64,000 nucleotides of DNA, from the UHGV virus genome UHGV-0312702. The stretch is one strand, 5' to 3'. Below, in pieces: positions 18,774 through 41,471 of the stretch (position 1 is its first letter; every line of letters begins with the position of its first letter). The notes beneath the pieces were generated by a model that did no database searches, was not told the origin of the DNA, and saw only the letters and a list, made by a program, of their open reading frames with translations. Position numbers and translations under genes: made by a program. Source of the DNA: a virus.

Positions 18774-18791
18774 AAATCTCTCTTATTTATC

Positions 18792-18867: not shown

Positions 18868-18872
18868 AAAAT

Positions 18873-18950: not shown

Positions 18951-18951
18951 A

Positions 18952-19026: not shown

Positions 19027-19122
19027 GTGAAAGAGGTCTGAAGTTGTGCCACTAACTCAACTCCGTGGAATTTGTTACGGTCTTCAGTTGACTCAAAGTG
19101 GTCTTTCACTTGACCTCTGAAT
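19027..19122 (-). ncRNA. candidate structured small RNA in tRNA-cluster spacer (not a tRNA)
   Basis: 96-nt spacer with complementary ends (AGAGGTC ... GACCTCT) and nested complementary segments (GTGAAAGA/TCTTTCAC, CTGAAG/CTTCAG); no T-loop motif. Confidence 0.3.
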
Positions 19123-19198
19123 TGGTGCTCCCACAAGGATTCGAACCCTGATAAGTTGCTTACAAGGCAACCGTAATAGCCAATTATACGATAGGAGC
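19123..19198 (-). tRNA. tRNA-Thr (anticodon TGT)
   Basis: Anticodon stem GTTGC/GCAAC with loop CTTGTAA; T-loop TTCGAAT. Confidence 0.7.
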
Positions 19199-19205
19199 AT
19201 TAATT

Positions 19206-19280
19206 TGGAGCATCCAGAGGGAATCGAACCCTCAACCTCAGTTTGGAAGACTGTAATTTTCCCGTTTAAACTATGGATGC
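19206..19280 (-). tRNA. tRNA-Gly (anticodon TCC)
   Basis: Acceptor GCATCCA/TGGATGC perfect 7 bp, anticodon loop CTTCCAA. Confidence 0.7.
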
Positions 19281-19286
19281 ACTAAT

Positions 19287-19362
19287 TGGTGGAGAAGCAG
19301 GGAATTGAACCCTGTACTTAAGTTTGCAAAACTTATGTTTTAACCATGTAAACTACATCCCC
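19287..19362 (-). tRNA. tRNA-Ala (anticodon TGC)
   Basis: Anticodon stem TAAGT/ACTTA loop TTTGCAA; G3-U70 wobble pair present (Ala identity element); T-arm CAGGG-TTCAATT-CCCTG. Confidence 0.7.
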
Positions 19363-19368
19363 AATGTT

Positions 19369-19444
19369 TGGTACAGGTGGAGGGAATTGAACCCATCGTC
19401 TTACTGATTAAGAGTCAGCCGCATAACCATTTTGCTACACCTGC
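19369..19444 (-). tRNA. tRNA-Lys (anticodon CTT)
   Basis: Acceptor GCAGGTG/CACCTGT, anticodon loop CTCTTAA. Confidence 0.65.
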
Positions 19445-19451
19445 ATTAATT

Positions 19452-19528
19452 TGGTACACCTAGAGAGATTCGAACTCACACTGAGCAGATTCTAAGTCTG
19501 CTGCCTCTACCAGTTGGGCTATAGGTGC
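19452..19528 (-). tRNA. tRNA with leucine anticodon TAG but class I architecture
   Basis: Acceptor GCACCTA/TAGGTGT, D-arm GCC-CAACTGGTAGA-GGC, anticodon stem GCAGA/TCTGC loop CTTAGAA, 5-nt variable loop. Confidence 0.6.
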
Positions 19529-19786
19529 ATTAAATCTTTTTAGAGAACTTCTAAGAACCTAAGCAACAAGGTTCCACAACAAGCTGTAATAACCTTAGAA
19601 GCCCTCTAAAAAGACCTAAAAAGGTCTTTGCATAGTCTTGTTTAATCCGGTGACTAGAACCTTTGGAGAGCTTGATATTATCTCTTCTCCGTGACACCTA
19701 CTAGGTGCTTTACTGTGCGTGTACGACAATACACGAGGGATACCAAAGCAACATCCGAATGAAGCTTGGCTTTAAATCTTATTAGG

Positions 19787-19874
19787 CGGTAAGTAAAGGA
19801 GTCGAACCCTCACCGTATCTCTACAGTGGCAACTGTTTTCAAGACAGTTTGGCTACCATTAGCCGCTACCTACC
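19787..19874 (-). tRNA. tRNA-Ser (anticodon TGA), class II
   Basis: 88 nt, acceptor GGTAGGT/ACTTACC, anticodon stem ACTGT/ACAGT loop CTTGAAA, long variable arm; CCA not encoded. Confidence 0.6.
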
Positions 19875-19887
19875 CCTAATAAGACTT

Positions 19888-19970
19888 TGGCATGGGACGG
19901 AGGAGTTGAACCCCTTTGAAACGGTTTTGGAGGCCGTTGCTCATGCCTTAGAGTCTTAACATCGTCCCAC
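19888..19970 (-). tRNA. tRNA-Trp (anticodon CCA), atypically long 5' half
   Basis: Acceptor GTGGGAC/GTCCCAT, anticodon loop CTCCAAA, T-arm GGGG-TTCAACT-CCTC; D-arm region about 7 nt longer than canonical. Confidence 0.5.
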
Positions 19971-20112
19971 ACTATAATTCGAAACTTACCGTATTATCTC
20001 AACACTGTAAAGCCCCTTCTCAGATTATTTACATGTTCTGGAAAACATGAGATACAGACCACCTCCCTACAGGAAGACCCGCTTAGGTCGTCTAAGTAAT
20101 CTGCTAACTAAT

Positions 20113-20189
20113 TGGCACACCCTACAGGATTCGAACCTGTAACTAACGATTTAGAAGACCGTTGCTCTATCCAATTGAACTAAGGGTGC
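20113..20189 (-). tRNA. tRNA-Arg (anticodon TCT)
   Basis: Anticodon stem ACGGT/ATCGT loop CTTCTAA; acceptor GCACCCT/AGGGTGT. Confidence 0.65.
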
Positions 20190-20526
20190 ATTAATCTTTA
20201 AAGACTCTCTTAGAAAGCCCTTAAAGATGCCCACCTTATTAATCATACCGTGGGCTAGTACGCCAAATTCTTTGATGAGGGATTGGAAGACCTCACTGGT
20301 GTTTAGCCTATCAAGCTACTGCCAGAAAAACATTGTCGTTTGCATTTATTTTAAATTTGCAAAATAGACGCTACGCAACGAAAACTATTCAGAATATGTA
20401 CAACAAATTTCCCCACATTGTGTTACGTCTAACGCTCATGTATTGGTGTTTGAATTATACATATTATGAATTATTTTTAGTTACTATAAAGTAGTCACAT
20501 CTCAATGTCAACAACTTTATTGAAAT

Positions 20527-20601
20527 TGGTTGTAGGTGAGGGTATCGAACCCTCTTCTAACGGTTATCAGCCGTTTGCATTACCATTTATGCTAACCCAC
20601 A
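20527..20601 (-). tRNA. tRNA-Ile (anticodon GAT)
   Basis: Anticodon stem AACGG/CCGTT loop CTGATAA; T-arm GAGGG-TTCGATA-CCCTC. Confidence 0.7.
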
Positions 20602-20602
20602 A

Positions 20603-20680
20603 TTGGAGGTTCAGGTGGGAATCGAACCCACATTCATAGGGCTTATGAAACCCCTGCATTACCTTATCTGCGACTGAACC
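20603..20680 (-). tRNA. tRNA-Met (anticodon CAT), elongator-like
   Basis: Perfect acceptor GGTTCAG/CTGAACC, anticodon stem GGGGT/GCCCT loop TTCATAA. Confidence 0.6.
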
Positions 20681-20684
20681 ATAT

Positions 20685-20760
20685 TGGTAGAAGTGGAGGG
20701 ATTCGAACCCATCGCCTGTCAGATTAAAAGTCTGCCGCATCACCATTCTGCTACACTTCC
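20685..20760 (-). tRNA. tRNA-Lys (anticodon TTT)
   Basis: Acceptor GGAAGTG/CACTTCT, anticodon loop CTTTTAA. Confidence 0.65.
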
Positions 20761-20909
20761 ATTAAATTATCTTTGTAGATAAGCTACCCAGACTTGCTTA
20801 AGGTCTGTAGCGATGTGCCTTGTTGGGTTTAAATCTAGAATTTACCCTTTCACCCTTTGTGGTCGCATACTCACAGGTAAGCTTAATAGCTCACCTACAA
20901 AGATAATTA

Positions 20910-21041
20910 CCAGACCGTTGTTTATCATCTTAAGTGCTACCATTACACCAACTCGACATCTGCCGAGTGAAGGAATCGAACCTTCGCCTTTTCTTTACCG
21001 GAGAAATAGATTGTTTAAGTTTTGCTGTAAACGGTCTTCTG
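20910..21041 (-). repeat. bounded spacer unit D (CCAGACC ... TGCTGTAAACGGTCTTCTG) containing a tRNA-like T-arm
   Basis: Shares both end motifs with units at 21055, 21484, 21637; contains GAAGG-AATCGAA-CCTTC (tRNA T-arm signature at 20969-20985) but no canonical anticodon loop or acceptor pairing. Confidence 0.5.
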
Positions 21042-21054
21042 TAAATTTGTTGAG

Positions 21055-21128
21055 CCAGACCAAGTTTTAAATTTTCAAAATTAAATTGGCTTGAAATTTC
21101 ATACATTCTTGCTGAATTTGGTCTTCTG
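21055..21128 (-). repeat. bounded spacer unit A (CCAGACC ... TGCTGAATTTGGTCTTCTG)
   Basis: Same terminal motifs as units B, C, D; the two ends are mutually complementary (AGACC/GGTCT). Confidence 0.5.
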
Positions 21129-21215
21129 CTCCTTTAAAGAATACTCGCAAGAACTCTTTAAGGGAGGGGCTAAATAGCCCTCTCAAAACATCATTTTGAA
21201 ATACTTATTATAATT

Positions 21216-21293
21216 TGGCGGTTACGAAGGGATTTGAACCCTCATCATCTCCCGTGACAGGGGAGTATTTTAACCAGATTAAACTACATAACC
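21216..21293 (-). tRNA. tRNA-Asp (anticodon GTC)
   Basis: Anticodon stem CTCCC/GGGAG loop CTGTCAC; acceptor GGTTATG/CGTAACC. Confidence 0.65.
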
Positions 21294-21298
21294 TTTAT

Positions 21299-21386
21299 TG
21301 GTGTGCCGTGTAGGAGTCGAACCTACCGAGTCTCAATGACAAGGGATTTACAGTCCCCACCGCTACCATCTACGGGATAACGACAC
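21299..21386 (-). tRNA. tRNA-Tyr (anticodon GTA), class II
   Basis: 88 nt; acceptor GTGTCGT/ACGGCAC, anticodon stem GGGA/TCCC loop CTGTAAA, long variable arm. Confidence 0.65.
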
Positions 21387-21395
21387 ATTTTAATT

Positions 21396-21472
21396 TGGCG
21401 GTTAGTCAGGGATTCGAACCCTGTGCCATTCGCTTAACAGGCGACCGCACATACCTTATGTGCTTCCTAACC
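21396..21472 (-). tRNA. tRNA-Asn (anticodon GTT)
   Basis: Anticodon loop CTGTTAA; T-arm CAGGG-TTCGAAT-CCCTG. Confidence 0.65.
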
Positions 21473-21483
21473 TTAATACATTG

Positions 21484-21542
21484 CCAGACCGTGTTTTTCT
21501 TTTATCCGCAAAAAGTAGTTTGTTGCTGAATACGGTCTTCTG
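21484..21542 (-). repeat. bounded spacer unit B (CCAGACC ... TGCTGAATACGGTCTTCTG)
   Basis: 59-nt unit between tRNA-Asn and the second CAT tRNA with the same end motifs. Confidence 0.5.
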
Positions 21543-21548
21543 CAAAAT

Positions 21549-21625
21549 TGGAGGCGGGTGCAGGAGTCGAACCTGCCGATACCATGCTAATGAGACATGT
21601 GAGACGCCCTTTCTCTATACCCGCA
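21549..21625 (-). tRNA. tRNA with anticodon CAT, second copy (initiator Met or Ile-lysidine type), atypical
   Basis: Anticodon stem CATGT/GCATG loop CTCATTA (pyrimidine at 37); acceptor pairs only with a 1-72 mismatch or a 1-nt register shift; D-stem GAGA/TCTC. Confidence 0.5.
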
Positions 21626-21636
21626 ATTCTTAATGA

Positions 21637-21709
21637 CCAGACCAAATCTCTTCTTTGTCCGATTGAATGTCAGATGAATAAGATTAAATTTGCTGTAATT
21701 GGTCTTCTG
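21637..21709 (-). repeat. bounded spacer unit C (CCAGACC ... TGCTGTAATTGGTCTTCTG)
   Basis: 73-nt unit between the CAT tRNA and tRNA-Glu with the same end motifs. Confidence 0.5.
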
Positions 21710-21716
21710 TCAAAAC

Positions 21717-21791
21717 TGGTGTCGTAGACAGGATTCGAACCTGCGAGCAACTGATTGAAGGTCAGGTGGCTAACCATTTGCCTTCTACGAC
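21717..21791 (-). tRNA. tRNA-Glu (anticodon TTC), C at position 33
   Basis: Perfect acceptor GTCGTAG/CTACGAC, anticodon stem CTGA/TCAG with loop CCTTCAA. Confidence 0.55.
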
Positions 21792-21792
21792 A

Positions 21793-22149
21793 TTAAACCA
21801 TTGTAATTCCACTATGAACCTCTCTGTGGCAATTAGCGCATAGCAAAACACATTTATCAAGTTCTTTTTTAACCTTTTCCCAAGATGCACCCATAAGTTT
21901 TGATGGTGTATTCTCTTTTTCGTTTGGGTTAAGGTGATGCCATTCTAAAGCATTTTTACATTTATTATAGCCACAAATTATGCAACTATCGCCATAAAGC
22001 TTATATGCTTTCTCCCTATTGGCATCCTCTCTAAGTTTTGTCCTTAATGCACAACATTTTAGACAATTTACTCTATTACCGGCGTTACCATTCTTATGAA
22101 TGCTATGTTCAGTTAAACCATGAACTGGACATTCTTTTAAAAATCTCAT
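21793..22149 (-). CDS. HNH homing endonuclease, about 118 aa
   Basis: Cys-rich zinc-finger region plus HNH motif (EWHHLNP ... LLCANCHREVH); ORF-track start at 22227 overlaps tRNA-Pro, so the start is placed at the ATG at 22149. Confidence 0.7.
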   Translation of the reverse strand: MRFLKECPVHGLTEHSIHKNGNAGNRVNCLKCCALRTKLREDANREKAYKLYGDSCIICGYNKCKNALEWHHLNPNEKENTPSKLMGASWEKVKKELDKCVLLCANCHREVHSGITMV

Positions 22150-22166
22150 AGTAACCCCTTTAAATT

Positions 22167-22243
22167 TGGTCTCTGTTGGAGGACTTGAACCTCCGGCCTT
22201 ACCGCCCCAAACGGAACGCTCTACCAAGCTGAGCTAAACAGAG
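22167..22243 (-). tRNA. tRNA-Pro (anticodon TGG)
   Basis: Perfect acceptor CTCTGTT/AACAGAG, D-arm GCTC-AGCTTGGTA-GAGC, anticodon loop TTTGGGG, T-arm GGAGG-TTCAAGT-CCTCC. Confidence 0.75.
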
Positions 22244-31742: not shown

Positions 31743-31776
31743 GAGCCTCCTTAATCGGGGGCTTTTTAATTTTTAT
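31743..31776 (+). terminator. rho-independent terminator closing the + strand block
   Basis: AGCCTCC-TTAATC-GGGGGCT hairpin followed by TTTTTAATTTTTAT. Confidence 0.6.
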
Positions 31777-31859
31777 AAAATTTTATCGGTTGTCCCAACC
31801 TCTGGGTCACCATCATATGTGAACAAAATATCTACCCTCTTAATAACCTTCTTAATCTT

Positions 31860-31900
31860 ACTCTCTATATAGTTATATAGTACTATATAGTATCTTAGTA
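31860..31900. repeat. AT-rich tandem TATATAGT repeats
   Basis: ctctatatagt tatatagta ctatatagta in the ORF-free region. Confidence 0.5.
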
Positions 31901-32099
31901 CCTATCTAGTGGTTTTAATAGCCCCTCTGTATAGCCCTTCTAAACACTCTTCTAACAAGCCTTTTTAACAACCTATACAATCACCTTAACCACCTCTCTA
32001 TACACTCTTAGAAGCTCCTATACACATCTTAATCTCTATGTCAGCTATGATACCCTCTATAGGTGTTCACTAGGTATTACTAAGCCTCTATATAGACTG

Positions 32100-32850
32100 T
32101 TTTAACAAACTTAACAGGAATATCTTCACAGACCTTATCTCACAAGGTCTAACACGGTACTAACAAGGTATCTTATAAGCCTGTTTCTACCTGTATTTTT
32201 AAAAGACTGTCTAGGTAATTATTCAGAATTTTAAAATTTTTATAAAATAGGACTATCAAGTCATTTTTTAGGGTCTTTGAAGGAACTGAAAAATATCTGT
32301 CTAGGATGTATATCTGCTTGGTAGCCCTTAACATCCCTGTAACATCCCCTTTGCAGAATTTTAAAATATCCTTAACAATCTCTTAACAGCTCTTACATCT
32401 TCTTAACATCTCTTCAGAGGTCTTAACAGATTCTTAACAGAACTAACAAGGATGTAACAAGTTCTTAACAGTCGATACATAGGCTTTACAGAGTCTTAAC
32501 AGATGACTAACAAGAGCTAACAAGTTAATTTTTAAGAGTTATTTTGTTAAGATAATTAACAAGTTTCTAACAAGTGTTTAATCTTTTTAACAAGCTATTA
32601 ACATGGTCACTACTCTTTTCTTATCGTTCCCTCTACCTTCTTAGTGATTCTCTAAACATACCTCTTAAAAGCTCTCTATAGCTACTTATAAGCCCTTTTA
32701 AGCCTCTTCCTAGTAACTACACCCCAACTATACAGACACCTATTTATAGAGCTTTACAGGAGCTTTTAAGGCTATGCCAAAGGTTCTTACAAGTCTTTTA
32801 CGTGGTCTTAACAGAGATTTAACAAGGGGCTAACAAGTTGCTAACAAGTG
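32100..32850. repeat. iteron-like array, more than 20 copies of CTTAACAG / CTAACAAG / TTAACAAG
   Basis: Copies at about 10-11 bp phasing (for example tcttaacaga-ttcttaacag-aactaacaagg at 32421-32451; gctaacaagttgctaacaagtg at 32829-32850); no ORF of 60 aa or more on either strand in 31733-33389. Confidence 0.6.
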
Positions 32851-33325
32851 CCTTAAAAGCATAACTATGTAGGGATTGTTAAGAAATTGTTAAGAAAATG
32901 TTAAGGGGGCTAGCATTTACGTAACTTTATAGCCTCTTTTACGTAACTTTTAAGCTACTTCAGAGTAACTTTATAGCCCCTATAACATACTTTTTAGTGA
33001 CTATCAAGGGGATTGTTTAACTATTCACAAGATACTAACGAGATAATAAAGCTCATAACCTTATAAGATTCTTTTAAGCCTCTATAAAGCCCTGTAAAGA
33101 GCTTTTAAGGGTGAGTTAATGCAATCCCTTAAGTTAGATTGATAAGGCTGTTATAGCGCTTTATAGAGCGTTTAAACGGTTGCCCTTCCCTTTCGGGTTA
33201 TGGGCTTATATTTAAGTTGATTTGATAAGGGGCTATAGAGTAAGCTATAGAGTTATTACTTTTAAGGTATGAGATAGATTCTATCGAATCAGTGGGAAAG
33301 ATTCTGGGAAGGGATTGGATAGACG

Positions 33326-33352
33326 TAAAAAAGCCCCTATAAGAAGGAGCTT
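33326..33352 (-). terminator. rho-independent terminator closing the - strand small-gene array (possibly bidirectional)
   Basis: AGCCCC / GGAGCT stem flanked by A-run on one side and T-run on the other. Confidence 0.5.
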
Positions 33353-33389
33353 TTCAGGTATCTGGGGCTATTTAGCCCCGTTGCGTCGA

Positions 33390-33638
33390 TTAGTTGTAAC
33401 CTTGTTTGCTGTAGTATAGGGAGACGATTTTTTCTCCCCAGTAGTGGTAGTGATATTCCTCGTTTATGGCTTCTTTTACAGCATCCTTCCAAAAGTCATC
33501 GGTAGGGTTATAATCTGGTAGCACCTGCTGAATCAGCATTTTGATAAGGTCAAAGGTGTTATCTGTGCCACCGATATCGAATTTTGCATCAAGTTCGTGG
33601 CAGCCATAAGCATTAACAGTTACGCGGATAGTTGACAT
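33390..33638 (-). CDS. hypothetical protein, 82 aa
   Basis: ORF preceded by conserved leader cassette. Confidence 0.45.
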   Translation of the reverse strand: MSTIRVTVNAYGCHELDAKFDIGGTDNTFDLIKMLIQQVLPDYNPTDDFWKDAVKEAINEEYHYHYWGEKIVSLYYSKQGYN

Positions 33639-33705
33639 AATTTAGATTCTCCAGTTTAGGACTTTATTTAGTGGGAAGGTTAATCCCTCCCCGTTGATTA
33701 GTAAT

Positions 33706-33969
33706 TTACTGCATGTTGGCGTATGTTGCAAGCCTTTTTTCGTTGTATTTTGTCAGAATCTCACAAGATAAAACATCATATTTTGTAACCGCTTTGCCTT
33801 TGTCGAGGTCAAAGAATCCGAACGCTTTACCGTCTTTGAATCCGACAACCTCGTAAGACTCTTTGATGATTTCACCATTGAACAAATCACTTTCGATACG
33901 GTGGAATAGTGCTACATCCTCTTTGTCGGATGCAATTTGTAAAAGTGTGGTCAGTTCGACGTGTTCCAT
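33706..33969 (-). CDS. hypothetical protein, 87 aa
   Basis: ORF preceded by conserved leader cassette. Confidence 0.45.
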   Translation of the reverse strand: MEHVELTTLLQIASDKEDVALFHRIESDLFNGEIIKESYEVVGFKDGKAFGFFDLDKGKAVTKYDVLSCEILTKYNEKRLATYANMQ

Positions 33970-34030
33970 TTTGAATCTCCAGTTTAGGATTTTATTTAGT
34001 GGGGGAGGTCATCCCCCGTTGATTGACAAT

Positions 34031-34561
34031 TTACAGATTTTTGATTGTCTCGTCAATATCTTTTTCAATATCTTTTAAAGTTTTTTCTAAGTTCTTGATA
34101 TTAAACGTTAAACCTTCACCGAGAGTCTTAGAATAACCGCTAGGACGTAAACCATATAGCTCGATTTCTTCCACTTCAAAGAGGTTAACAGTCCAACCGC
34201 CTACGCCATAGGCTGAAGCAACAGTATTTGCAGGTGCGTTGTAAAACTTGTTCAAATTATGAATAGAACGTTCATAAGCCATTTTATAGCTATTTAAAAG
34301 GTTTTTAACGTGGCTGTGAACGTTTTTACACTCATCTAAGTAAAGACCTAAAAACATCGGGAGAAGTTCCGCGACAGCTTGCATAAAGTGAGAGACTACC
34401 ACGGTTGCAACATTACGACGATGAACGTAATAAGCCCCGTTTCCTGATTTGGTAATGGTTGCAAAGTGTACCCCATTACAACGGAATTCATAGGTATCTT
34501 TAACAGGCTTAGACATTACATTATTTGAACGAATATAGTTGATAGCTTTGAACTTGTTCAT
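34031..34561 (-). CDS. hypothetical protein, 176 aa
   Basis: ORF preceded by conserved leader cassette (CTAGGAGATTCTAAA then ATG). Confidence 0.5.
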   Translation of the reverse strand: MNKFKAINYIRSNNVMSKPVKDTYEFRCNGVHFATITKSGNGAYYVHRRNVATVVVSHFMQAVAELLPMFLGLYLDECKNVHSHVKNLLNSYKMAYERSIHNLNKFYNAPANTVASAYGVGGWTVNLFEVEEIELYGLRPSGYSKTLGEGLTFNIKNLEKTLKDIEKDIDETIKNL

Positions 34562-34630
34562 TTTAGAATCTCCTAGTTTAAGGACTTTATTTAGTGGGGA
34601 AGGTCATTCCCTCCCCGTTGATTAGTAATT
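34562..34630 (-). promoter_or_regulatory. conserved leader cassette, family B
   Basis: Near-identical copies upstream of genes starting at 33638, 33969, 34561, 35126, 36701; each has a GGGAA-TGACC-TTCCC hairpin, a CACTAAATAAAG box and a GGAGA RBS. Confidence 0.5.
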
Positions 34631-34784
34631 TACTTGTTTTGATAGTTGATTGCAAGCAATTTTTTAAGTTTATCTATAAAGAATCTTTTAAGTAAATCCC
34701 TTTTAGATAAACCCCCTCGAACAAATGTACTATTGTCAAGGGGTATCGTCAAGTAATTTTTTAAAGTTTTTTGTAAGTTATTGA

Positions 34785-35126
34785 TTAACTGATGAATATT
34801 TTTTCAGGTTTTACATAGCTGATACGCTGGCTTTTTAGCAGGTCATCCCAGATTAGCGCGGCAATATGAGAATAACCGGATTCACGTAAGAGCTTCATTG
34901 CTTTACTTCTCGTTTCAAAACGGCTTGCGTAGTACTCGCTATTCAGTGTCGTTTTATTCCCTTCGTTATCTGTATGGATGATTTGCATCACTTGAAAGGG
35001 GCTGACATCCTCGCCTTTGTTCCACTGCTCAAAGTATTTTAGGCACTGCATAGGTGACATCTTATCACTGACTTGAGTTGACCAAGATGAATCTTCTTTA
35101 TTGGTAATTACAGTTACATAAGCCAT
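34785..35126 (-). CDS. hypothetical protein, about 113 aa
   Basis: ORF-track start at 35192 lies inside the conserved leader cassette; ATG at 35126 has the conserved RBS spacing. Confidence 0.45.
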   Translation of the reverse strand: MAYVTVITNKEDSSWSTQVSDKMSPMQCLKYFEQWNKGEDVSPFQVMQIIHTDNEGNKTTLNSEYYASRFETRSKAMKLLRESGYSHIAALIWDDLLKSQRISYVKPEKIFIS

Positions 35127-35216
35127 TTTAGAATCTCCTAGTTTAAGGACTTTATTTAGTAGGGAGGTTATTGCCTCCCCGTTGATTGGCAATTTACAGA
35201 CTTTTATCAGGCTTGT

Positions 35217-35450
35217 CTAGTCTTTTTCAATGATAATTTCATATTGACCATCGACACTGTCAAAATAGACGCCGTCTTCATCTTCTGTCTTAAAGTAGCA
35301 TTGAATATCATCACTGGCGGGATAGTCTTGTCTTGCTATCTGGCAAACTTGAATAGCATTTTCTTTACTCCCTGTAAACTCCTCAAGCCCTTTAAAATCA
35401 CATGAATGACCATTACAAATAGAAAGGATAAGATAAACGGTTGTAAGCAT
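35217..35450 (-). CDS. hypothetical secreted/lipoprotein-like protein, 77 aa
   Basis: N-terminal hydrophobic segment ending LSICNG, Cys-containing. Confidence 0.4.
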   Translation of the reverse strand: MLTTVYLILSICNGHSCDFKGLEEFTGSKENAIQVCQIARQDYPASDDIQCYFKTEDEDGVYFDSVDGQYEIIIEKD

Positions 35451-35513
35451 GATTTAAGCCCTTTAAATGGCCCTGTATGGGCCTTAAGTTGGAAGTTGGT
35501 GTCTTTGTACTGA

Positions 35514-36077
35514 TTAACCTAAAAAGTCTTTTAAATTGCGCTCTGTGATGTTTGCCGTGATTTTATCCAGCAAGTCACAAAACACGGAACTATCACCGCT
35601 ATTCTGTACAATTTTCGCCATACTTAACAAATCATCGTCAACATAGCCTAAATTGCGGTTAGTTGCATCTGGTACAAAGAAAGGTGCATACATCGCACTA
35701 AATTTCGTCGAGTGAAGGCCAATAATCCAATTTTTATCAAAGTGTCCGGTAAAGCTGGCGATATCGCTCATGTTGTCACAAGAATAATCATCCTCTAGCT
35801 CTTCCTCTGGGATATCCATCTCAATGACAATTACGTCCTGCGTTTCCATTTGGAAAGCTGCCGTAATAAGCCCAGATTCTAAAGCGTTTTGAATGCAGCG
35901 TTCACGAATGTAAGAATCTTCCTCATCTTCCAGACATTCCGTTTTGATAATCTTGTTCATTGGGTAAACGTAGAAACAATCATCCATGTAGGAGCAGTTC
36001 CAGATTCCTTCTGGCTTGTCACCACCATTCAGCAAGTTTACAAAGTTTTTGAGGGTAGTGCCGTGATAGCATTTCAT
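35514..36077 (-). CDS. hypothetical highly acidic protein, 187 aa
   Basis: ORF; Asp/Glu-rich (for example DIPEEELEDDYSCDNMSD). Confidence 0.5.
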   Translation of the reverse strand: MKCYHGTTLKNFVNLLNGGDKPEGIWNCSYMDDCFYVYPMNKIIKTECLEDEEDSYIRERCIQNALESGLITAAFQMETQDVIVIEMDIPEEELEDDYSCDNMSDIASFTGHFDKNWIIGLHSTKFSAMYAPFFVPDATNRNLGYVDDDLLSMAKIVQNSGDSSVFCDLLDKITANITERNLKDFLG

Positions 36078-36078
36078 T

Positions 36079-36162
36079 TTTGAATCTCCAGTTTAGGATT
36101 TAGTGGTAAAGCTCTTTATCTGGGGCTTAAGATATCAACTTTTAAGCCCCCTGTAAAGTACT
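36079..36162 (-). promoter_or_regulatory. conserved leader cassette, family A
   Basis: About 85-nt element repeated almost verbatim at 36412-36503, 37210-37295, 39071-39158, 39417-39502, 39884-39972: 9-bp hairpin GGGGCTTAA...TTAAGCCCC, CACTAAATCC box, TAAACTGGAGATTCAAAA then ATG. Confidence 0.55.
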
Positions 36163-36411
36163 TTATTTAACTTTCTTTGAGAAAATTAGTTTAACTGCAA
36201 CCGTAGGAATCTCGTCAGCGCTTGTAACCAGCATTACTTTTTGGGTAACCAACTTATAACCGTTCTTTGCAGCATATGCGGTAAAACGGTTAACATTGTA
36301 ACTATAAGTTTTTGGTGTGCTATCTGGCATGTGGTAAAGAAAAGGTTTACCCAAATTTTCTTCTTGTGTCAACAGTCGGCAGGTATCAGGGATATTGAAA
36401 TAGTTCATCAT
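36163..36411 (-). CDS. hypothetical protein, 82 aa
   Basis: ORF preceded by family A cassette. Confidence 0.45.
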   Translation of the reverse strand: MMNYFNIPDTCRLLTQEENLGKPFLYHMPDSTPKTYSYNVNRFTAYAAKNGYKLVTQKVMLVTSADEIPTVAVKLIFSKKVK

Positions 36412-36503
36412 TTTTGAATCTCCAGTTTAGGATTTAGTGGTAAAGCTCTTTATCTGGGGCTTAAGATATCAACTTTTAAGCCCCCTGTAAAGTACTTTAT
36501 CAG
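36412..36503 (-). promoter_or_regulatory. conserved leader cassette, family A copy
   Basis: Near-identical to 36079-36162. Confidence 0.55.
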
Positions 36504-36701
36504 TTATTTTTTGACAACTTTTAAAACTGCAAGATAACCTAAGCAATAAGAATCACCGAAGAGAGTTCTGCCCATGAAAGAATCCTCTTTGATATCCTTT
36601 GCAGTGACAGTTTTTTCTACGCCGTGGGAAAGGACTACATCACCGACTTTGATGTCTTTGATGTGTGTTGTTTCAATGGTTAAGCCGTTAATAATAGCCA
36701 T
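36504..36701 (-). CDS. hypothetical protein, 65 aa
   Basis: ORF preceded by family B cassette. Confidence 0.4.
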   Translation of the reverse strand: MAIINGLTIETTHIKDIKVGDVVLSHGVEKTVTAKDIKEDSFMGRTLFGDSYCLGYLAVLKVVKK

Positions 36702-36804
36702 TTTAAAATCTCCTAGTTTAAGGACTTTATTTAGTGGGGAAGGTCATTCCCTCCCCGTTGATGTGTAATTTAGCCTATCTAAAAATCAGTGTCAATAATT
36801 TTTT

Positions 36805-37209
36805 TTAGAGTTCTGCGTAAATTGCATCACAGATATTACGGAAGTCATGATTTGACAAATTACGTTGTAACCAAGTGGCGAAGAAATCAGCGATTGCAAA
36901 ATTAGCATCATACTCGACAGATAGCCACACTTTAACAGCAAATCGGAACATTTTCAAGTCTAACTCTTTATTCATTACCTTAGATTTGCCTAACATGTCG
37001 GACATCTCATATTGTGCACCGTCTAGCGTGATACCTGCTGCAACGTCAGACAATGAGTTTTTTACGTTTTCAACGTCTAAGATAACACTTTGAATCTTCC
37101 CGATAATGTTGTGCAATGTTTCATCCGGTGCTGATGATGTAATAACATTAATCCGGTTAACGGTCAAACGTGCTTTTAAAATTGATAACTCACGGTTATT
37201 AATAGCCAT
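36805..37209 (-). CDS. hypothetical protein, 134 aa
   Basis: ORF preceded by family A cassette. Confidence 0.45.
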   Translation of the reverse strand: MAINNRELSILKARLTVNRINVITSSAPDETLHNIIGKIQSVILDVENVKNSLSDVAAGITLDGAQYEMSDMLGKSKVMNKELDLKMFRFAVKVWLSVEYDANFAIADFFATWLQRNLSNHDFRNICDAIYAEL

Positions 37210-37295
37210 TTTTTAGTTCTCCAATTTAGGATTTAGTGGTAAAGCTCTTTATCTGGGGCTTACTTTATCGAACTATAAGCCCCTTGTAAAGTACT

Positions 37296-37568
37296 TTATA
37301 CTAAATGCAGCTTTTTACCTTTTACTATGATGTAACTAGATGCGCTATTGCTGCATACATCTTGGTAAATTCTGCGCAAACGCCCTTCATAGTGTACTTT
37401 CCAACTGGTTGGAATCTTTTTCCCGTATCCTGTAGCAGTTTTTTGGAGTCCTGCAACTTGCCAATCCAAAATGTGCTGTTCAGCTTGTAAATCCTCGAAG
37501 TGCATTACACCGTTCACATAGTGGCGTAGGGTTACGTTTAAAGTGCGACCGTTGTTAGTAGTGTACAT
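37296..37568 (-). CDS. hypothetical protein, about 90 aa
   Basis: Start moved from 37610 to the ATG at 37568, which has the conserved RBS context. Confidence 0.4.
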   Translation of the reverse strand: MYTTNNGRTLNVTLRHYVNGVMHFEDLQAEQHILDWQVAGLQKTATGYGKKIPTSWKVHYEGRLRRIYQDVCSNSASSYIIVKGKKLHLV

Positions 37569-37841
37569 TTTAAAAGCTCTTAGTTTAAGGGTTTTATTTT
37601 GACAGTTCACTAATTAAGACATCAAAGATTATATCATTATCTGCTACAGTTGCAACACCAGTGATATAATCAATTTCTAGGATAACAACAACTTTCGTAC
37701 ATAAACCGTCATCTATATCATTCCAGACAACTTTATCACCTGCACAAAACATTTTCAGAATCTCCAGTTTAGGACTTTATTTAGTGGGGAAGGTCATTCC
37801 CTCCCCGTTGATGTGTAATTTAGCCTATCTAAAAATCAGTG

Positions 37842-38174
37842 TCAAACACTTTGTTTTCGTTTGCTCAATTCTTGAACAATTACAGCGTAGTAGTCTTTTA
37901 AGTCACTGATATTTAAAGCATTTATTAGTGAATTATAATCATCGACTAACTGAAAATCATCTTTGAAGATGTCACTTATCTGATAGGTGTTAGCTTTGTA
38001 TCTGAAGCTCATTTCTAACCGTTTTATTTGTTCATCACTTAAACGCTCCAGAAAACTCATTACAAGGCTATTATTGACCTGTTGCGTGATTGCCTTACTT
38101 GCCAGATTGTAGGCGCTGTACGCCTTATATAGCGCCATAATAGCAATGATTGCAGTGACTCCCATCATTAACAT
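37842..38174 (-). CDS. hypothetical membrane protein, 110 aa
   Basis: N-terminal hydrophobic segment; AAGAGG RBS. Confidence 0.45.
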   Translation of the reverse strand: MLMMGVTAIIAIMALYKAYSAYNLASKAITQQVNNSLVMSFLERLSDEQIKRLEMSFRYKANTYQISDIFKDDFQLVDDYNSLINALNISDLKDYYAVIVQELSKRKQSV

Positions 38175-38464
38175 GGTGTTACCTCTTTACGTGACACTTT
38201 GCCATTTACAGATATCTCATAAGATTCTAATAAATCACTTTTAGACTTTACTGGACTTTTAAAAGTATCATCATAAATATTAACTTGCAATACAGGTTTT
38301 TTATACTCCCTGCAACTGTTCCATAAACAAATCACTACACGACGGCCTTTTATTTTGCCGTGTAACCATTCCATAACATCATGACTATTCCTTGATGTTT
38401 CAATGAAATCAATTTTATTAAGTAACTTGCTTAGATTTTCACGAACTTTATTTGATAATTTCAT
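38168..38464 (-). CDS. hypothetical protein, 98 aa
   Basis: ORF preceded by cassette variant. Confidence 0.45.
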   Translation of the reverse strand: MKLSNKVRENLSKLLNKIDFIETSRNSHDVMEWLHGKIKGRRVVICLWNSCREYKKPVLQVNIYDDTFKSPVKSKSDLLESYEISVNGKVSRKEVTPC

Positions 38465-38557
38465 TTTAGAATCTCCTAGTTTAAGGGCTTTATTTTGATA
38501 AATCTTTTTATCTGGGGCTATCCTACCAGCTTGATAACCCCGTGTAAAGAAATCTAT

Positions 38558-39070
38558 TTAGTTCTTAAAGATATTCATCACTGAGTCTTTCAACGATTCC
38601 AAACGTTCTAATACTTCAGTTTCTGCGTCTGAATTGCTCACCTCTTCTTTTAGTCTATCCTCTAAATCATCACCGTCACGATAGCACCAATCGAAAGCAT
38701 AACCAAGATAAAAACTTTCTAAAACCGTGTTACCGTTTGCATCCACAACTTTCGCGGCAAGGTTGTACTCTGAAGCCTCTAAATCTCTTTCTAGTTCTTT
38801 CTGTAAGCTGGTGTAAGCCTCTTTTGATGGATTTTCCCGACCTTGTTTTGCATAGTCACTAGAAAGCTGTTTAAGGCTGTAATGTAAAGGGATTGCATAT
38901 TTAAACTCATTATGCTGATGGTTAGGATTTTTAATAGTTACACCGCCTTGATGGTCATCTGTAAACTGCCAATTATCAAGGTTATGGCTTGCTTCAAAGC
39001 AATTAACAGCCTCATAGATGATAGAAAATTTTTCTTTTACAACTTCAAAGGTAGCGTCTACAGTTTTCAT
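38558..39070 (-). CDS. hypothetical acidic protein, 170 aa
   Basis: ORF preceded by family A cassette. Confidence 0.5.
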   Translation of the reverse strand: MKTVDATFEVVKEKFSIIYEAVNCFEASHNLDNWQFTDDHQGGVTIKNPNHQHNEFKYAIPLHYSLKQLSSDYAKQGRENPSKEAYTSLQKELERDLEASEYNLAAKVVDANGNTVLESFYLGYAFDWCYRDGDDLEDRLKEEVSNSDAETEVLERLESLKDSVMNIFKN

Positions 39071-39158
39071 TTTTGAATCTCCAGTTTAGGATTTAGTGGT
39101 AAAGCTCTTTATCTGGGGCTTAAGATATCAACTTTTAAGCCCCCTGTAAAGTACTTTA
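39071..39158 (-). promoter_or_regulatory. conserved leader cassette, family A copy
   Basis: Near-identical to 36412-36503. Confidence 0.55.
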
Positions 39159-39416
39159 TCAGATTAAATTGCCAGTTAATGATAAGTGCATTTTATAGCC
39201 TTTTTTGGTAAAAACGTTCACTTTACCTAGTGTTTTTACACCTTTAAAAAGGTTGTTTGAACTGCGTTTTAAAGTTAACTGCTTATCAACCTTCACGCCC
39301 CACCTTACAGCAGATTGTTTCCCGTTGTCAATCACTTTACCGCATAACTTTTTAGCCATGTTGCGAGCGTCATCACGAGTCTTTGCAGTAATTACAACGT
39401 TTTTGATAATAGCCAT
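39159..39416 (-). CDS. hypothetical basic protein, about 85 aa
   Basis: Start moved from 39431 to the ATG at 39416, 9 nt downstream of GGAGA. Confidence 0.45.
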   Translation of the reverse strand: MAIIKNVVITAKTRDDARNMAKKLCGKVIDNGKQSAVRWGVKVDKQLTLKRSSNNLFKGVKTLGKVNVFTKKGYKMHLSLTGNLI

Positions 39417-39502
39417 TTTTAAGTTCTCCAATTTAGGATTGAGTGGTAAAGTTCTTTATCTGGGGCTTACTTTATCGAACTATAAGCCCCTTGTAAAGTA
39501 CT

Positions 39503-39883
39503 TTATTTAATTTTGAAAATTGTTACATAACCATCACTACCGATTATTTGAGACACTCCAGCTTTTTCTACTTGATAGCCCATATTTTCAAGATGATAAA
39601 CAGCATCATCATAACCATATGCGCCGCCTTGATAACGTCTCTTATCACATCTTACTAATACCTTTCCACGTCCAGCAAGTGCATTCAGTACAGCTTTTTC
39701 ACTTGAGAGTGTGCCATCTAACATGGTTGCCGTGTAATGGTTGATTCTATTCCCGTTAATATCATACTTAAAATTGAATGCGTGAACAACAATCAATTTG
39801 CCGTTAAATTTTTCATCAAGTGACTTCTCCAGTGCGTTGCGGAAGTTGTCTTTGTTGATGAATTTTGGTGCACGATAAGCCAT
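39503..39883 (-). CDS. hypothetical protein, 126 aa
   Basis: ORF preceded by family A cassette. Confidence 0.5.
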   Translation of the reverse strand: MAYRAPKFINKDNFRNALEKSLDEKFNGKLIVVHAFNFKYDINGNRINHYTATMLDGTLSSEKAVLNALAGRGKVLVRCDKRRYQGGAYGYDDAVYHLENMGYQVEKAGVSQIIGSDGYVTIFKIK

Positions 39884-39972
39884 TTTGAATCTCCTAGTTT
39901 AAGGGTTAATTTAGTAAAGCTCTTTATCTGGGGCTTAAGATATCAGCTTTTAAGCCCCCTGTAAAGTACTTT

Positions 39973-40179
39973 TTATTTATCGTAGTAGTAAATTGCTGTC
40001 TGTCTTGTAAACTTCTTAGTGTTTATTGTAAGGTAGCAATTAGAATTAATAGCCGTTTCTACATAGTTGCAATAGTCAGCTTCTGAAATTCTACGCCATG
40101 CGCCGCACACTTGCATGTAAAAACGTTTTACATTTGTATTAACGTTGGTTGTAACCATCAATTCACGACTGTAAAGCAT
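39973..40179 (-). CDS. hypothetical Cys-containing protein, 68 aa
   Basis: First gene after the candidate promoter at 40229-40257. Confidence 0.4.
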   Translation of the reverse strand: MLYSRELMVTTNVNTNVKRFYMQVCGAWRRISEADYCNYVETAINSNCYLTINTKKFTRQTAIYYYDK

Positions 40180-40228
40180 TTTTGATTCTCCAGTTTAGGA
40201 AGTGGGCTTGATTGCCCGTCTGATGCAA

Positions 40229-40257
40229 ATATTAGATAACCATACTCAAAGAGTCAA
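40229..40257 (-). promoter_or_regulatory. candidate sigma70-type promoter driving the small-gene array
   Basis: On - strand TTGACT, 17-nt spacer, TAATAT, about 45 nt upstream of the ATG at 40179. Confidence 0.45.
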
Positions 40258-40429
40258 TAGGAATTTTAAAAATATTTTTGCAAAAATTGTAATGAAACGG
40301 GCGCATGCGACTACCACAAAACAGAACTACAATCAAGAATTATTTTTCAATCCGCTACAAATTTTTCTGTTGACTTTTATTTCCAGATGTGGTAGCCTTG
40401 TGAGAAATGGCGACATCCCCACCTGTACC

Positions 40430-40630
40430 CACCTACCTGCACAATTCTAAAATGATTTTTCTTGCCCGACCTGAGCGGGGTCTGCACGTTTTGAAAATGA
40501 AAAAGCTCTTTGGAGATTACCTGCACAGTTTGAAAATGAATTTTCTCTTTGGAGTTCAAAATTTTCTCTACAGATTTCTGTCCAGAACTCTACCTGCACA
40601 ATCCTGAAATGAAAAAGCCCTCCTTACCTG
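40430..40630. repeat. tandem direct repeats (ACCTGCACAnTTnnAAAATGA...CTCTTTGGAG), about 4 copies
   Basis: Copies at about 40435, 40481, 40518, 40591 in a 500-nt ORF-free interval. Confidence 0.5.
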
Positions 40631-40685
40631 AAAAATTTACCAGATAAAAAAGGCTTAGTCTATTGTGAATATCTTACAGATTTTC

Positions 40686-41471
40686 TTAGTTCTTTGCGTC
40701 TAAGAAGGTAACTTCTGATGATGAGAAAATTTCCTCAACATCCTCATCAGTTCTTGCATAGATATATGTATCTGCATCACTGCCAAATGTTACTGCAATC
40801 CTGTGATTGTTCTTTGACAGGTGGGTAACTAGAGCGTTACTCAGAGACATCTTTTCAACCGGAGGGTTACTTTGATGTATCTTACCTTTTCTTCGTCTGA
40901 AGAGGGTAACTGTATTGTCTGTGAACGTTACTACACCTGCAAAGTATTCTGGTTCACAGTAGTTCTTCCAACCTGAGCGTAACTTGTGGTACATCTCTCC
41001 TTCATAGACATACAGATACACATCTACACTCTTCATCACCTGATTAATGATAACTGTGACGGCTTGAGGGTCAAGCCCACCGATACCTGCACCAATCATA
41101 GGTAACCCGACTTTCTTCAACTGATTGACTTCACAGTATCTGTTAAGCTGTTTCAAAGATGACTCTAAAGCACTGTATCGGGCATCTTTACCAGTCTTAA
41201 GCTGAGTGTAAAGGTTAGCTATACGGCCTTGTTTTAAACGTGCTACAGAGAAATTACCTAGTAGATTTTCACAGGGTTTGTTGCCTATACCACCTGCATA
41301 CAGATAGACTTCTGTATCAGTTTCATATGCTTTTGGGTAAAATTTAGAAATCTTGTCAGCAATACCTGCACCCATTAAATTCATACAGTTGCAGCCATGA
41401 CCAATGATATCAAATTTACCTTTATCAAATGCGTCAAAAATACTACCATTGATGATTTTTACAATACCCAT
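40686..41471 (-). CDS. macro-domain-like protein (putative ADP-ribose binding/processing), 261 aa
   Basis: N-terminal IVKIINGSIFDAF ... DIIGHGCNCMNLMGAGIA resembles the macro-domain Gly-rich ADP-ribose-binding motif; assignment from motif memory only. Confidence 0.45.
   Translation of the reverse strand: MGIVKIINGSIFDAFDKGKFDIIGHGCNCMNLMGAGIADKISKFYPKAYETDTEVYLYAGGIGNKPCENLLGNFSVARLKQGRIANLYTQLKTGKDARYSALESSLKQLNRYCEVNQLKKVGLPMIGAGIGGLDPQAVTVIINQVMKSVDVYLYVYEGEMYHKLRSGWKNYCEPEYFAGVVTFTDNTVTLFRRRKGKIHQSNPPVEKMSLSNALVTHLSKNNHRIAVTFGSDADTYIYARTDEDVEEIFSSSEVTFLDAKN

Follow-up and report, generated by a model that had tools for sequence, protein, structure and literature searches.

Why should a run of small, mutually unrelated phage genes be preceded by recurrent copies of a short leader? 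The question is raised by the viral genome UHGV-0312702, of which a stretch of 64,000 nucleotides (hereafter the window) carries an array of 17 minus-strand open reading frames (ORFs) of 52–187 amino acids at positions 33390–40179, as given by the ORF listing and here called g1 to g17 in their 5′ to 3′ order. Nucleotide matches of the array region identify the source genome as a Felixounavirus, that is, a Felix O1-like myovirus of the subfamily Ounavirinae. A preliminary description, made from the letters alone, had pointed to the repeated leader and had offered cassette shuffling, a shared translational regulator or a phage-specific promoter as its possible meaning. We propose that the array is probably a hyperplastic early-gene region composed of plug-and-play units, each a leader joined to an orphan ORF, in which the leader would serve at once as promoter, stem-loop, translation-initiation region (TIR) and crossover site.

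Leader families and their confinement to the array

When the 130 nt lying 5′ of every gene were extracted and read along the minus strand, hairpin leaders were found before 14 of the 17 genes and the conserved TIR core TAAA(C/T)T(A)GGAG before 15, which bears out the basic claim of the preliminary description that leaders recur before the small genes of the array. Family 1 (F1) precedes seven genes (g2, g3, g4, g5, g9, g11 and g12) and family 2 (F2) six (g7, g10, g14, g15, g16 and g17), and the leader of g1 represents a third hairpin subtype, “F2b”, which is common in phage SUSP2. As for the remainder, g8 has the shared TIR alone, g6 overlaps g5 and has no leader, and g13 is preceded by an unrelated small hairpin. 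F1 constitutes a 110-nt repeat family with 66–100% identity to the reference copy (repeat finding gave six copies), and the long leader patterns produced three to seven matches versus 0.00–0.11 expected in shuffles. The leaders are, however, less uniform than had been described. The hairpin thought to be common to both families has in fact different stems in F1 (GGGGCTTAA..) and in F2 (GGGGAGGG..), the CACTAAAT box, though fairly constant among F2 leaders, varies in F1, and what was taken for a single, identical TIR exists as two to three alleles.

All 15 TIR cores, all seven F1 cores and all six F2 cores lie within the array, and a search of both strands of the 64 kb found none outside it. 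The same confinement is seen in the relative Bas63, where the leader motifs occur only in the homologous array (genes 98–111) and nowhere in the other ~66 kb examined, as well as among uncultivated viral contigs, where exact F1 cores were found, in clusters, only on contigs of 54–94 kb, mostly of 81–94 kb, which is the Felix O1 genome class. One of these, IMG/VR contig 2974556886, holds nine exact F1 cores, some pairs of which are merely 83 nt apart. By blastn, an F1 query matched 288 phage records, 29 of them from Erwinia phages, and an F2 query matched 251, Mooglevirus and Suspvirus among them. These are essentially all Felix O1-like (Ounavirinae-type) phages with matches at four to nine places per genome, and there were no T4-type phages among the leader matches listed.

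The TIR is conserved well past its Shine-Dalgarno motif, reading CC(T)TAAAC(T)(A)GGAG(A)TTC in 15 genes, with the GGAG 8–9 nt before the ATG; in F1 leaders the stop codon of the upstream gene falls within TAAATAAAGTAC or TGATAAAGTAC. Every genus has its own homogenised version, for example CCCTTAAACAGGAATC in the Erwinia phages, which speaks for concerted evolution. Such conservation could also mean that the TIR, perhaps together with the hairpin, is the operator of a single phage RNA-binding protein or endoribonuclease that would switch the array off after the early phase, recombination being then a by-product. RegA repression and RegB cleavage at GGAG in phage T4 offer analogues, the GGAG with its A-rich tract resembling RegB targets, and the extent of the conservation, its genus-specific versions and the early maximum of several array ORFs in Felix O1 (see below) would all fit. 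Yet the regulator is hypothetical, one genome can have two to three alleles of the TIR side by side, and gene conversion among the repeats combined with selection for efficient initiation predicts the very same conservation. An operator of this kind, which would answer to the shared translational regulator of the preliminary description, is compatible with the modular reading that we prefer, and we entertain it as a possible, if tentative, addition to it.

A predicted host-type promoter in each leader

The alignment comprised every distinct leader copy of the window and of 13 relatives, 59 belonging to F1 and 37 to F2. In F1, CTTTACA is invariant in all 59 copies and is followed, after exactly 17 nt, by TAnnnT, in which the first T, the A and the last T are invariant and the three inner positions are free (TATCTT, TAAAGT, TACAGT, TAGGAT, TAAGAT, TATGAT, TACCAT and others). 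The first two and the last positions are the critical ones in the signature of a sigma70 −10 box. In F2, TTGACA, TTGCAA, TAGACA or TTGACG is followed, again after 17 nt, by TAAATT (or TAATAT or TAGTAT), so that TTGnnn-17-TAnnnT describes the 37 copies. Here the −35 box and the spacer often fall within the 3′ end of the preceding ORF, which differs, and is unrelated, from one leader to the next, and the stop codon of that ORF may form part of the −10 box (from g15 to g16 and from g16 to g17) or of the −35 box (from g13 to g14). A −35-like hexamer kept at fixed spacing in such non-homologous contexts is hard to explain except by promoter function. The same hexamers and spacing recur in the leaders of Kolesnikvirus, Mooglevirus and Suspvirus, hence in four genera in all; a generic sigma70 scan flagged 12 of the 14 leaders; and in the annotation of phage ASO1A the F2 sites are marked as promoters, with the hairpin directly after them called a “terminator”.

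A promoter role of the leaders is thus well supported by the sequences. The promoter at each gene that the preliminary description had considered therefore holds in its first part and not in its second: a phage-specific promoter is rejected, since the hexamers and their spacing (TTTACA/TTGACA-17-TAnnnT) fit the plain consensus of the host sigma70 type.

Structure of the leader RNA

Each of the 35 distinct hairpins (23 F1 and 12 F2) folds, at −10 to −16 kcal/mol. In F1 the hairpin is the inner part of a two-part structure of ~60 nt, in which UAAAGUACUUUA and UAAAGAGCUUUA, on either side of the inner 9-bp stem, pair with each other to give ~20 bp (11 + 9 pairs) with a 3×3 internal loop, at −24 kcal/mol and with z-scores of −3.5 to −4.4. 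One minimum free energy (MFE) fold is shared by all 19 distinct F1 cores from the four genera, and in the alignment of 59 copies over 20 pairs, pairing is kept in 97% of cells, compared with 31–57% when the partners are slid by one to three columns. Compensatory double changes are seen at two F1 pairs. Pair 5 occurs as C-G, U·G or U-A, and in the other genera the outer stem undergoes a G-C to U-A switch and compensated stems GGTGTTTA/TAAGCACC replace GGGGCTTA/TAAGCCCC. Wobble pairs are sense-strand G·U at about ten or more positions and A·C at essentially none, a bias which indicates selection on the sense RNA and not on a DNA cruciform; this asymmetry was used in place of a comparison of sense and antisense MFE, which is uninformative as a strand test because the loops add spurious antisense pairs. 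For F2 the changes within Felixounavirus are one-sided wobble changes with no compensatory doubles, and the values equal those of shuffled controls; in other genera the F2 stems are altered and still pair. The support for F2 is therefore weaker and comes from conservation, wobble asymmetry and the distant genera. The leaders matched no Rfam family at gathering thresholds or at permissive E-values, the only matches being tRNAs and one chance match.

The ATAAAGnnCTTTA motifs of F1 could be taken for two palindromic operators flanking the promoter, which we rejected as the main explanation. Neither of the outer arms forms a palindrome in copies of the g5 type or in those of Moogle and SUSP2, but the two remain mutually complementary through the G-C to U-A switch and wobbles, and this argues against a duplicated palindromic operator.

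Promoter and stem are differently disposed in the two families. In F1 the outer stem contains the −35 box, the inner loop and 3′ arm contain the −10 box, and the predicted start follows directly 3′ of the inner stem, so that the two-part structure can form solely in read-through RNA from upstream. In F2 the predicted start lies 3–6 nt before a hairpin of 7–8 bp. In neither case does a T-run follow: all 14 leader stems lack one, and beyond them the sequence goes on with AGATAAAG or ACTAAATA. The leader as a canonical intrinsic terminator was accordingly rejected, a terminator scan having called no leader stem. The combination that defines an intrinsic terminator, a G+C-rich stem and a U-tract, is found solely at the two boundaries of the array, where textbook examples with runs of T5–T6 bracket it at 40612–40656 and 33327–33354.

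These observations bear on the proposal that the leaders are pure transcriptional insulators, namely an efficient terminator followed or overlapped by a promoter, as has been proposed for the promoter-early stem-loops (PeSLs) of T4-type phages, with no role in RNA processing or stability. In a reporter assay, the stem-loop of a PeSL did match rrnB T1 in its reduction of read-through (PMC2839356), the WebGeSTer-based annotations of ASO1A and KhF3 call the F2 hairpin a “terminator”, and sense-strand wobbles would suit a terminator as well as a processing site. Nevertheless, the absence of a T-run from all 14 leader stems, as opposed to T5–T6 at both array boundaries, means that the terminator function of the T4-type elements cannot be assumed here. 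Moreover, the F2 hairpin lies 3′ of its own promoter, where an efficient terminator would abort the gene's own transcript, and the outer F1 stem adds ~11 bp that would be superfluous for termination. We regard pure insulation as unlikely.

Gene turnover by crossover at the leaders

The 6.9-kb array region matches 256 phage records, nearly all of them Felixounavirus, the best matches being Escherichia phage P54 (92% covered, 93.5% identical) and skuden (97%, 87.8%). The P54 record (PV390658.1, 88 kb) has a taxonomy line of Straboviridae/Tequatrovirus, yet its sequence is that of a Felixounavirus, so that the label is probably mis-assigned. When the array proteins of the window and the 13 relatives were clustered into a presence matrix, array size was found to range from 9 to 17 genes across the relatives and the differences to consist of whole genes, with ten window genes missing from at least one relative and four extra families appearing. 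Homology breaks at start codons (0–5 nt in), 3–6 nt before stop codons, or inside leaders. Taking as breakpoints all ends of the high-scoring segment pairs (HSPs) in BLAST comparisons of the window with each relative, intergenic regions (±6 nt) account for 23 of the 26 distinct breakpoints, versus 22.9% expected (binomial p = 2.4e-12, the three exceptions being trivial), a figure to be read with the caution that HSP end-points are not independent of ORF-wise differences.

At seven of the eight indels inspected, those of g16, g11, g7, g4, g2–g11 (in DR094), and g2–g3 and g10–g13 (both in Felix O1), exactly one intact hybrid leader is present, whose 5′ part comes from the upstream gene and whose 3′ part joins the downstream gene; the exception is the g5 indel of L27 and IME338, which does not use leaders. 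At the junction of the 3.7-kb deletion in DR094, an empty F1 leader stands in tandem with the next one, with no ORF between them (DR094 7673–7839), and this tandem and the closely spaced cores of the IMG/VR contig suggest further empty or duplicated leaders. Leader segments assort as well. In F1, each of three hairpin types is found with each of three TIR alleles (nine combinations), the TIR alleles are common to F1 and F2, and a single gene has up to five leader combinations across phages. For 36 of 102 leaders the closest relative stands at a non-orthologous position, though the copies are related by descent and gene conversion, and their counts thus overstate the number of independent events. 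The leaders are therefore preferred crossover sites, a recombination role that the sequences support well, and the crossovers at several points along them argue for general homologous recombination and not for a site-specific enzyme. The cassette shuffling put forward in the preliminary description thus receives strong support from breakpoints, hybrid junctions and segment assortment, and gene content, which might have shown no cassette-wise variation, does vary cassette by cassette among the 13 relatives.

It could still be imagined that the leaders are the sites of a dedicated recombinase or nuclease, akin to those of integrons or of homing elements and specific for structure or sequence, which would read the GGGG...CCCC hairpin as DNA and make promoter and TIR secondary. 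The PeSL authors speculated on such a protein (PMC2839356), homing endonuclease genes do occur in Felix O1-like genomes, and the strict limitation of the cassettes to one array would be accounted for. We consider this very improbable, however: junctions occur in the TIR, between hairpin and TIR, and 5′ of the hairpin, with all segment combinations, as fits general homologous recombination; wobbles are tolerated in the sense-RNA orientation only, which speaks against selection for a hairpin or cruciform of DNA; and Pfam detects no integrase or recombinase domain in the array or next to it. Regularly spaced direct repeats might also be the leftovers of recent tandem duplication of a gene with its upstream region, devoid of any selected function. 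That explanation is effectively refuted by the fact that the 17 ORFs are mutually unrelated, by the retention of leaders across four genera that differ in ORF content, and by the pattern of constraint within the leaders, in which promoter positions and stem pairing are kept and loops and spacers are free to vary.

The array genes

No Pfam domain was found above cut-off in any of the 17 array proteins, 16 of which fall into 16 different PHROG families of unknown function and one (g7) into none, confirming the earlier remark that they have no recognisable domains. That they are host-takeover or anti-defence genes is speculation. The natural absence of individual genes from relatives implies that these are non-essential. 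The knockout map of Bas63 has small hypothetical genes of varying essentiality at ~66–80 kb, an interval that overlaps most of its array (64.5–70.5 kb). The one functional hint comes from the homologue of g12 in that phage, gp107, which was reported to be conditionally important on E. coli S17-1 and to bear a weak resemblance, in structure, to the NAD-binding domain of RNA 2′-phosphotransferase (PMC11482910). As to timing, reverse transcription PCR in Felix O1 showed ORFs 16, 20, 21 and 22, which correspond to g4, g9, g14 and g15, to be maximal at 5 min, in keeping with early promoters, and ORFs 17, 19 and 23, three of the seven array ORFs listed, to be maximal at 25 min.

A proposed mechanism and its implications

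In the mechanism that we propose, each unit would consist of a leader of ~60–100 nt and one orphan ORF. As DNA, the leader would provide a host sigma70 promoter from which each gene could be transcribed alone, presumably soon after infection; as RNA, it would place a stable stem-loop between adjacent cistrons. The F1 promoter would sit inside the ~20-bp two-part structure, formed in upstream read-through transcripts alone, and the short F2 hairpin would come 3–6 nt after the start predicted for the transcript of the gene itself. Having no U-tracts, the stems would be mainly processing or stability elements or attenuators, not efficient intrinsic terminators, and may protect the upstream message at its 3′ end and the downstream message at its 5′ end. 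The 3′ part of the leader would supply a standardised, unstructured, A/U-rich TIR with its GGAG Shine-Dalgarno sequence. Finally, since the same 25–110 nt are present 14 times in direct orientation, the homologous-recombination machinery of the phage can cross over between leaders, and such crossovers, whether within one genome or between co-infecting relatives, would delete, insert or exchange whole ORFs, one intact leader being always regenerated. Comparison among the relatives bears out the promoter signature, the conserved structures and the recombination at leaders; when the genes are expressed, what the stems do as RNA and what the proteins are for are the parts of this scheme that we infer.

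Several points weigh against the scheme. Three of the array ORFs in Felix O1 have their maximum at 25 min and not at 5 min, and no transcript mapping of Felix O1-like phages was found in the searchable literature. To these should be added the F2 stems, with their lack of compensatory doubles within Felixounavirus, the missing T-runs, the g5 indel, and the two dependencies mentioned above, that of the breakpoint statistic on ORF-wise differences and that of the leader copies on one another.

One could go a step further and suppose, though we do so with some diffidence, that F1 is dual-coded: an early promoter as DNA and, in read-through RNA, a conserved two-part stem-loop of ~20 bp that might be cleaved by host RNase III or another nuclease or might block exonucleases. 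Messages would then be autonomous, insulated, stabilised and monocistronic whatever the neighbouring genes, and the TIR might act as a common operator for early shut-off. If this were true, the leaders would amount to a complete portable unit of expression and mobility, and to an independently evolved counterpart of the PeSLs of T4, that is, to convergent “gene-cassette linkers” in lytic phages.

Felix O1-like phages are in wide use in Salmonella typing, biocontrol and therapy, and serve, as Bas63 does, as models for the discovery of anti-defence genes. Their accessory genes turn over by way of defined promoter and stem-loop leaders, which explains the patchy gene content of this region, and the leaders predict where new genes will turn up. 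For engineering, the array offers a natural “landing pad” with ready-made expression signals. The scheme further yields predicted start and processing sites that can be tested.

Organisation of the array

All features of the array lie on the minus strand and are given here in window coordinates. At the 5′ bound, the intrinsic terminator (stem and T-run) at 40612–40656 closes the macro-domain operon described below and equals terminator t13 of Felix O1. The F2b leader of g1 (40180–40260) has −35 TTGACT (40252–40257), −10 TAATAT (40229–40234), a GGGC..GCCC hairpin (40204–40217) and the TIR CCTAAACTGGAGAATCAAAAATG (40177–40199); g1 itself (39973–40179) encodes an orphan of 68 amino acids (phrog_5293, unknown function) and is absent from Mushroom and HMD-P10. 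Three genes with F1 leaders follow. The leader of g2 (39884–39972) comprises −35 TTTACA (39960–39965), −10 TATCTT (39937–39942), an inner stem-loop (39930–39959) and the TIR (39881–39904), and g2 (39503–39883; 126 amino acids, orphan) is absent from ASO1A, DR094 and Felix O1. For g3 (39159–39416; 85 amino acids, orphan), which is absent or variant in several relatives, the leader spans 39417–39502, with the −35 box at 39492–39497, −10 TAAAGT at 39469–39474, the inner stem-loop at 39462–39490 and the TIR at 39414–39437. That of g4 spans 39071–39158 (−35, 39145–39150; −10 TATCTT, 39122–39127; inner stem-loop, 39115–39144; TIR, 39068–39090) and precedes an acidic orphan of 170 amino acids (38558–39070) that equals Felix O1 ORF16.

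The divergent “g5-type” F1 leader with its compensated stems (38465–38557) has the −35 box at 38543–38548, −10 TAGGAT at 38520–38525, the inner stem-loop GGGGTTATC..GATAGCCCC at 38514–38541 and the TIR at 38462–38486. The orphan g5 (38168–38464; 98 amino acids) overlaps by 7 nt with g6 (37842–38174; 110 amino acids), which has no leader, is translationally coupled to g5, begins with an N-terminal hydrophobic segment and gives a weak DUF3139 match below cut-off. The first F2 leader, that of g7 (37753–37841), shows −35 TTGACA (37840–37845), −10 TAAATT (37817–37822), a predicted transcription start at ~37809–37812, the hairpin (37786–37806) and the TIR (37750–37773), and its counterpart in ASO1A is annotated as promoter and “terminator”. 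Its gene (37594–37752; 52 amino acids, no PHROG family) is absent from six of the 13 matrix relatives and also from TH10, and the TIR-only leader of g8, CCTTAAACTAAGAGCTTTTAAAATG (37569–37593), forms the junction of the g7 insertion/deletion through TIR-confined homology; g8 itself is an orphan of 90 amino acids at 37296–37568.

The next F1 leader (37210–37295; −35, 37285–37290; −10 TAAAGT, 37262–37267; inner stem-loop, 37255–37283; TIR, 37207–37230) precedes g9 (36805–37209; 134 amino acids), equal to Felix O1 ORF20, and an F2 leader (36702–36804; −35 TTGACA, 36790–36795; −10 TAAATT, 36767–36772; hairpin, 36736–36756; TIR, 36699–36723) precedes g10 (36504–36701), an orphan of 65 amino acids. 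The 82-amino-acid g11 (36163–36411), missing from nine of the 13 matrix relatives, stands between two F1 leaders that are 93% identical over 110 nt. Its own is at 36412–36503 (−35, 36486–36491; −10 TATCTT, 36463–36468; inner stem-loop, 36456–36485; TIR, 36409–36431) and that of g12 at 36078–36162 (−35, 36152–36157; −10 TATCTT, 36129–36134; inner stem-loop, 36122–36151; TIR, 36075–36097), the latter with its own start predicted at ~36121–36122 and a whole two-part structure of −24.5 kcal/mol. The acidic protein of g12 (35514–36077; 187 amino acids) is the homologue of Bas63 gp107 discussed above. A non-cassette spacer (35451–35513), whose small hairpin GGCCC..GGGCC (35469–35483) is not significant (z = −1.1), separates it from the orphan g13 (35217–35450; 77 amino acids).

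All four remaining genes have F2 leaders. In that of g14 (35127–35216) the −35 box TAGACA (35214–35219) holds the stop codon of g13, and −10 TAAATT (35191–35196), the hairpin GGGGAGGCAATAACCTCCCT (35161–35180) and the TIR (35124–35148) lead to a gene of 113 amino acids (34785–35126) equal to Felix O1 ORF21. A long spacer of 223 nt with an F2 leader (34562–34784; −35 TTGCAA, 34650–34655; −10 TAAATT, 34627–34632; hairpin, 34596–34616; TIR, 34559–34583) precedes g15 (34031–34561; 176 amino acids), which equals Felix O1 ORF22. The distal part of this spacer contains a 90% copy of the 3′ end of g15, then TTGACG-17-TACATT (34724–34752) and a decayed hairpin, and looks like a fossil F2 cassette from an old recombination event. 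The leader of g16 (33970–34056) has −35 TTGACG (34051–34056) within the coding sequence of g15, −10 TAAATT (34028–34033) whose first three bases are the g15 stop TAA, the hairpin at 34001–34017 and the TIR at 33967–33988; g16 (33706–33969; 87 amino acids) thus lies between two F2 leaders and is absent from six of the 13 matrix relatives. In the leader of g17 (33639–33731) the −35 box TTGCAA (33726–33731) is within g16 and −10 TAAATT (33703–33708) overlaps the g16 stop, with the hairpin at 33673–33692 and the TIR at 33636–33660. Beyond g17 (33390–33638; 82 amino acids), the last array gene, a gene-less hairpin at 33364–33379, with an F2-type 5′ flank CAACGGGG and an F1-type 3′ flank CCCCAGATA, is a chimeric leader remnant just before the closing intrinsic terminator (stem and T6, 33327–33354), which has the same position at the array end as terminator t23 of Felix O1.

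Surroundings of the array

The arrays of phiEa104, Moogle and SUSP2 show the same synteny as the window, in which a macro-domain gene, the array, a terminator and a gene-free gap follow one another. The first of these, a conserved gene just 5′ of the array (40686–41471), encodes a protein of 261 amino acids with a Macro domain (E = 6e-8); it is called “phosphatase” in the annotation of relatives, and its position is kept in all four genera. Between the upstream terminator and the g1 promoter, TTCATTTTCAAAnTGTGCAGGTA occurs four times on the minus strand (40437–40620). Felixounavirus, Moogle and SUSP2 have these four copies in an unchanged order; phiEa104 and the rest of the window have no copy. 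The motif might be bound by a regulator.

The gap directly 3′ of the array (31750–33390, ~1.6 kb) is full of 11-bp-phased CTTAACA/CTAACAAG iterons in many copies, with inverted copies at 32867–32908 and convergent terminators at its edges. A comparable gene-free gap is present in all four genera, several GenBank records start within it, and it may be a replication origin or a terminal-repeat/packaging region. On the same strand as the array, 24 tRNA genes typical of Felix O1-like phages occupy 16620–22243.

Comparison with known systems

In the Felix O1 genome paper both leader motifs are given merely as direct repeats of 57 bp and 39 bp, and its authors state that transcription of the array region is not understood; the leader motifs are not described in the other papers on Felix O1-like genomes, and we found no earlier PeSL-type description in the literature on these phages or their subfamily.

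The leaders share traits with several kinds of element. The RNase III sites of the T7 early genes are intercistronic, ~50–60 nt long, with two stems of ~10 bp and an internal loop, and occur in an early polycistronic RNA made by the host polymerase; once cut, the upstream mRNA is stabilised by the hairpin left at its 3′ end, and the sites embed no promoter. F1, with its duplex of ~20 bp and 3×3 internal loop between cistrons, may be likened to them, but differs in embedding a promoter, and the F2 hairpin of 7–8 bp is too short for RNase III. With integron attC sites the array has in common single ORFs of “promoterless” size that are split by imperfect inverted repeats and are gained and lost cassette by cassette, an analogy already drawn by the PeSL authors (PMC2839356); here, however, the crossover points are variable, each unit has a promoter and the structure is seemingly selected as RNA, not as single-stranded DNA. 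As in the morons of lambdoid phages, a single accessory gene brings its own promoter and stem-loop. Morons have no conserved repeat flanks and are thought to insert by illegitimate recombination (PMC2839356), whereas here the conserved leader is the recombination substrate.

The closest likeness is to the PeSLs of T4-type phages. These combine a sigma70 promoter with a GGGG...CCCC stem-loop in several relative positions, start at the upstream stop codon and end with Shine-Dalgarno sequence and ATG, and are dense among the orphan ORFs of hyperplastic regions, where they mediate modular shuffling (Arbiol et al. 2010, PMC2839356; Comeau et al. 2014, PMC4122927). The Felix O1-like leaders differ from them in belonging to the Ounavirinae, with no detectable sequence similarity, in being gathered in one array and not spread across several hyperplastic regions, in the extra outer stem of F1 (the ~20-bp two-part structure), in a much more uniform TIR and in stems without U-tracts. 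They resemble them in the sigma70-like −35 and −10 boxes of F1 and F2 across four genera; in a stable GGGG...CCCC stem-loop and its position over spacer and −10 box (F1) or just 3′ of the −10 box (F2), which are two of the five described PeSL subclasses; in a unit that runs from the upstream stop codon in an AT-rich stretch to Shine-Dalgarno sequence and ATG; in dense repetition among the orphan ORFs of a hyperplastic region; and in indels and replacements between close relatives that cross over inside the motif. Every defining PeSL feature that can be judged from sequence is thus present. Taken together, the leaders of the array are best described as a PeSL-type system in the Ounavirinae, an independent and sequence-unrelated instance that extends the PeSL concept past the T4-type phages and suggests convergent evolution of recombination-competent regulatory linkers.

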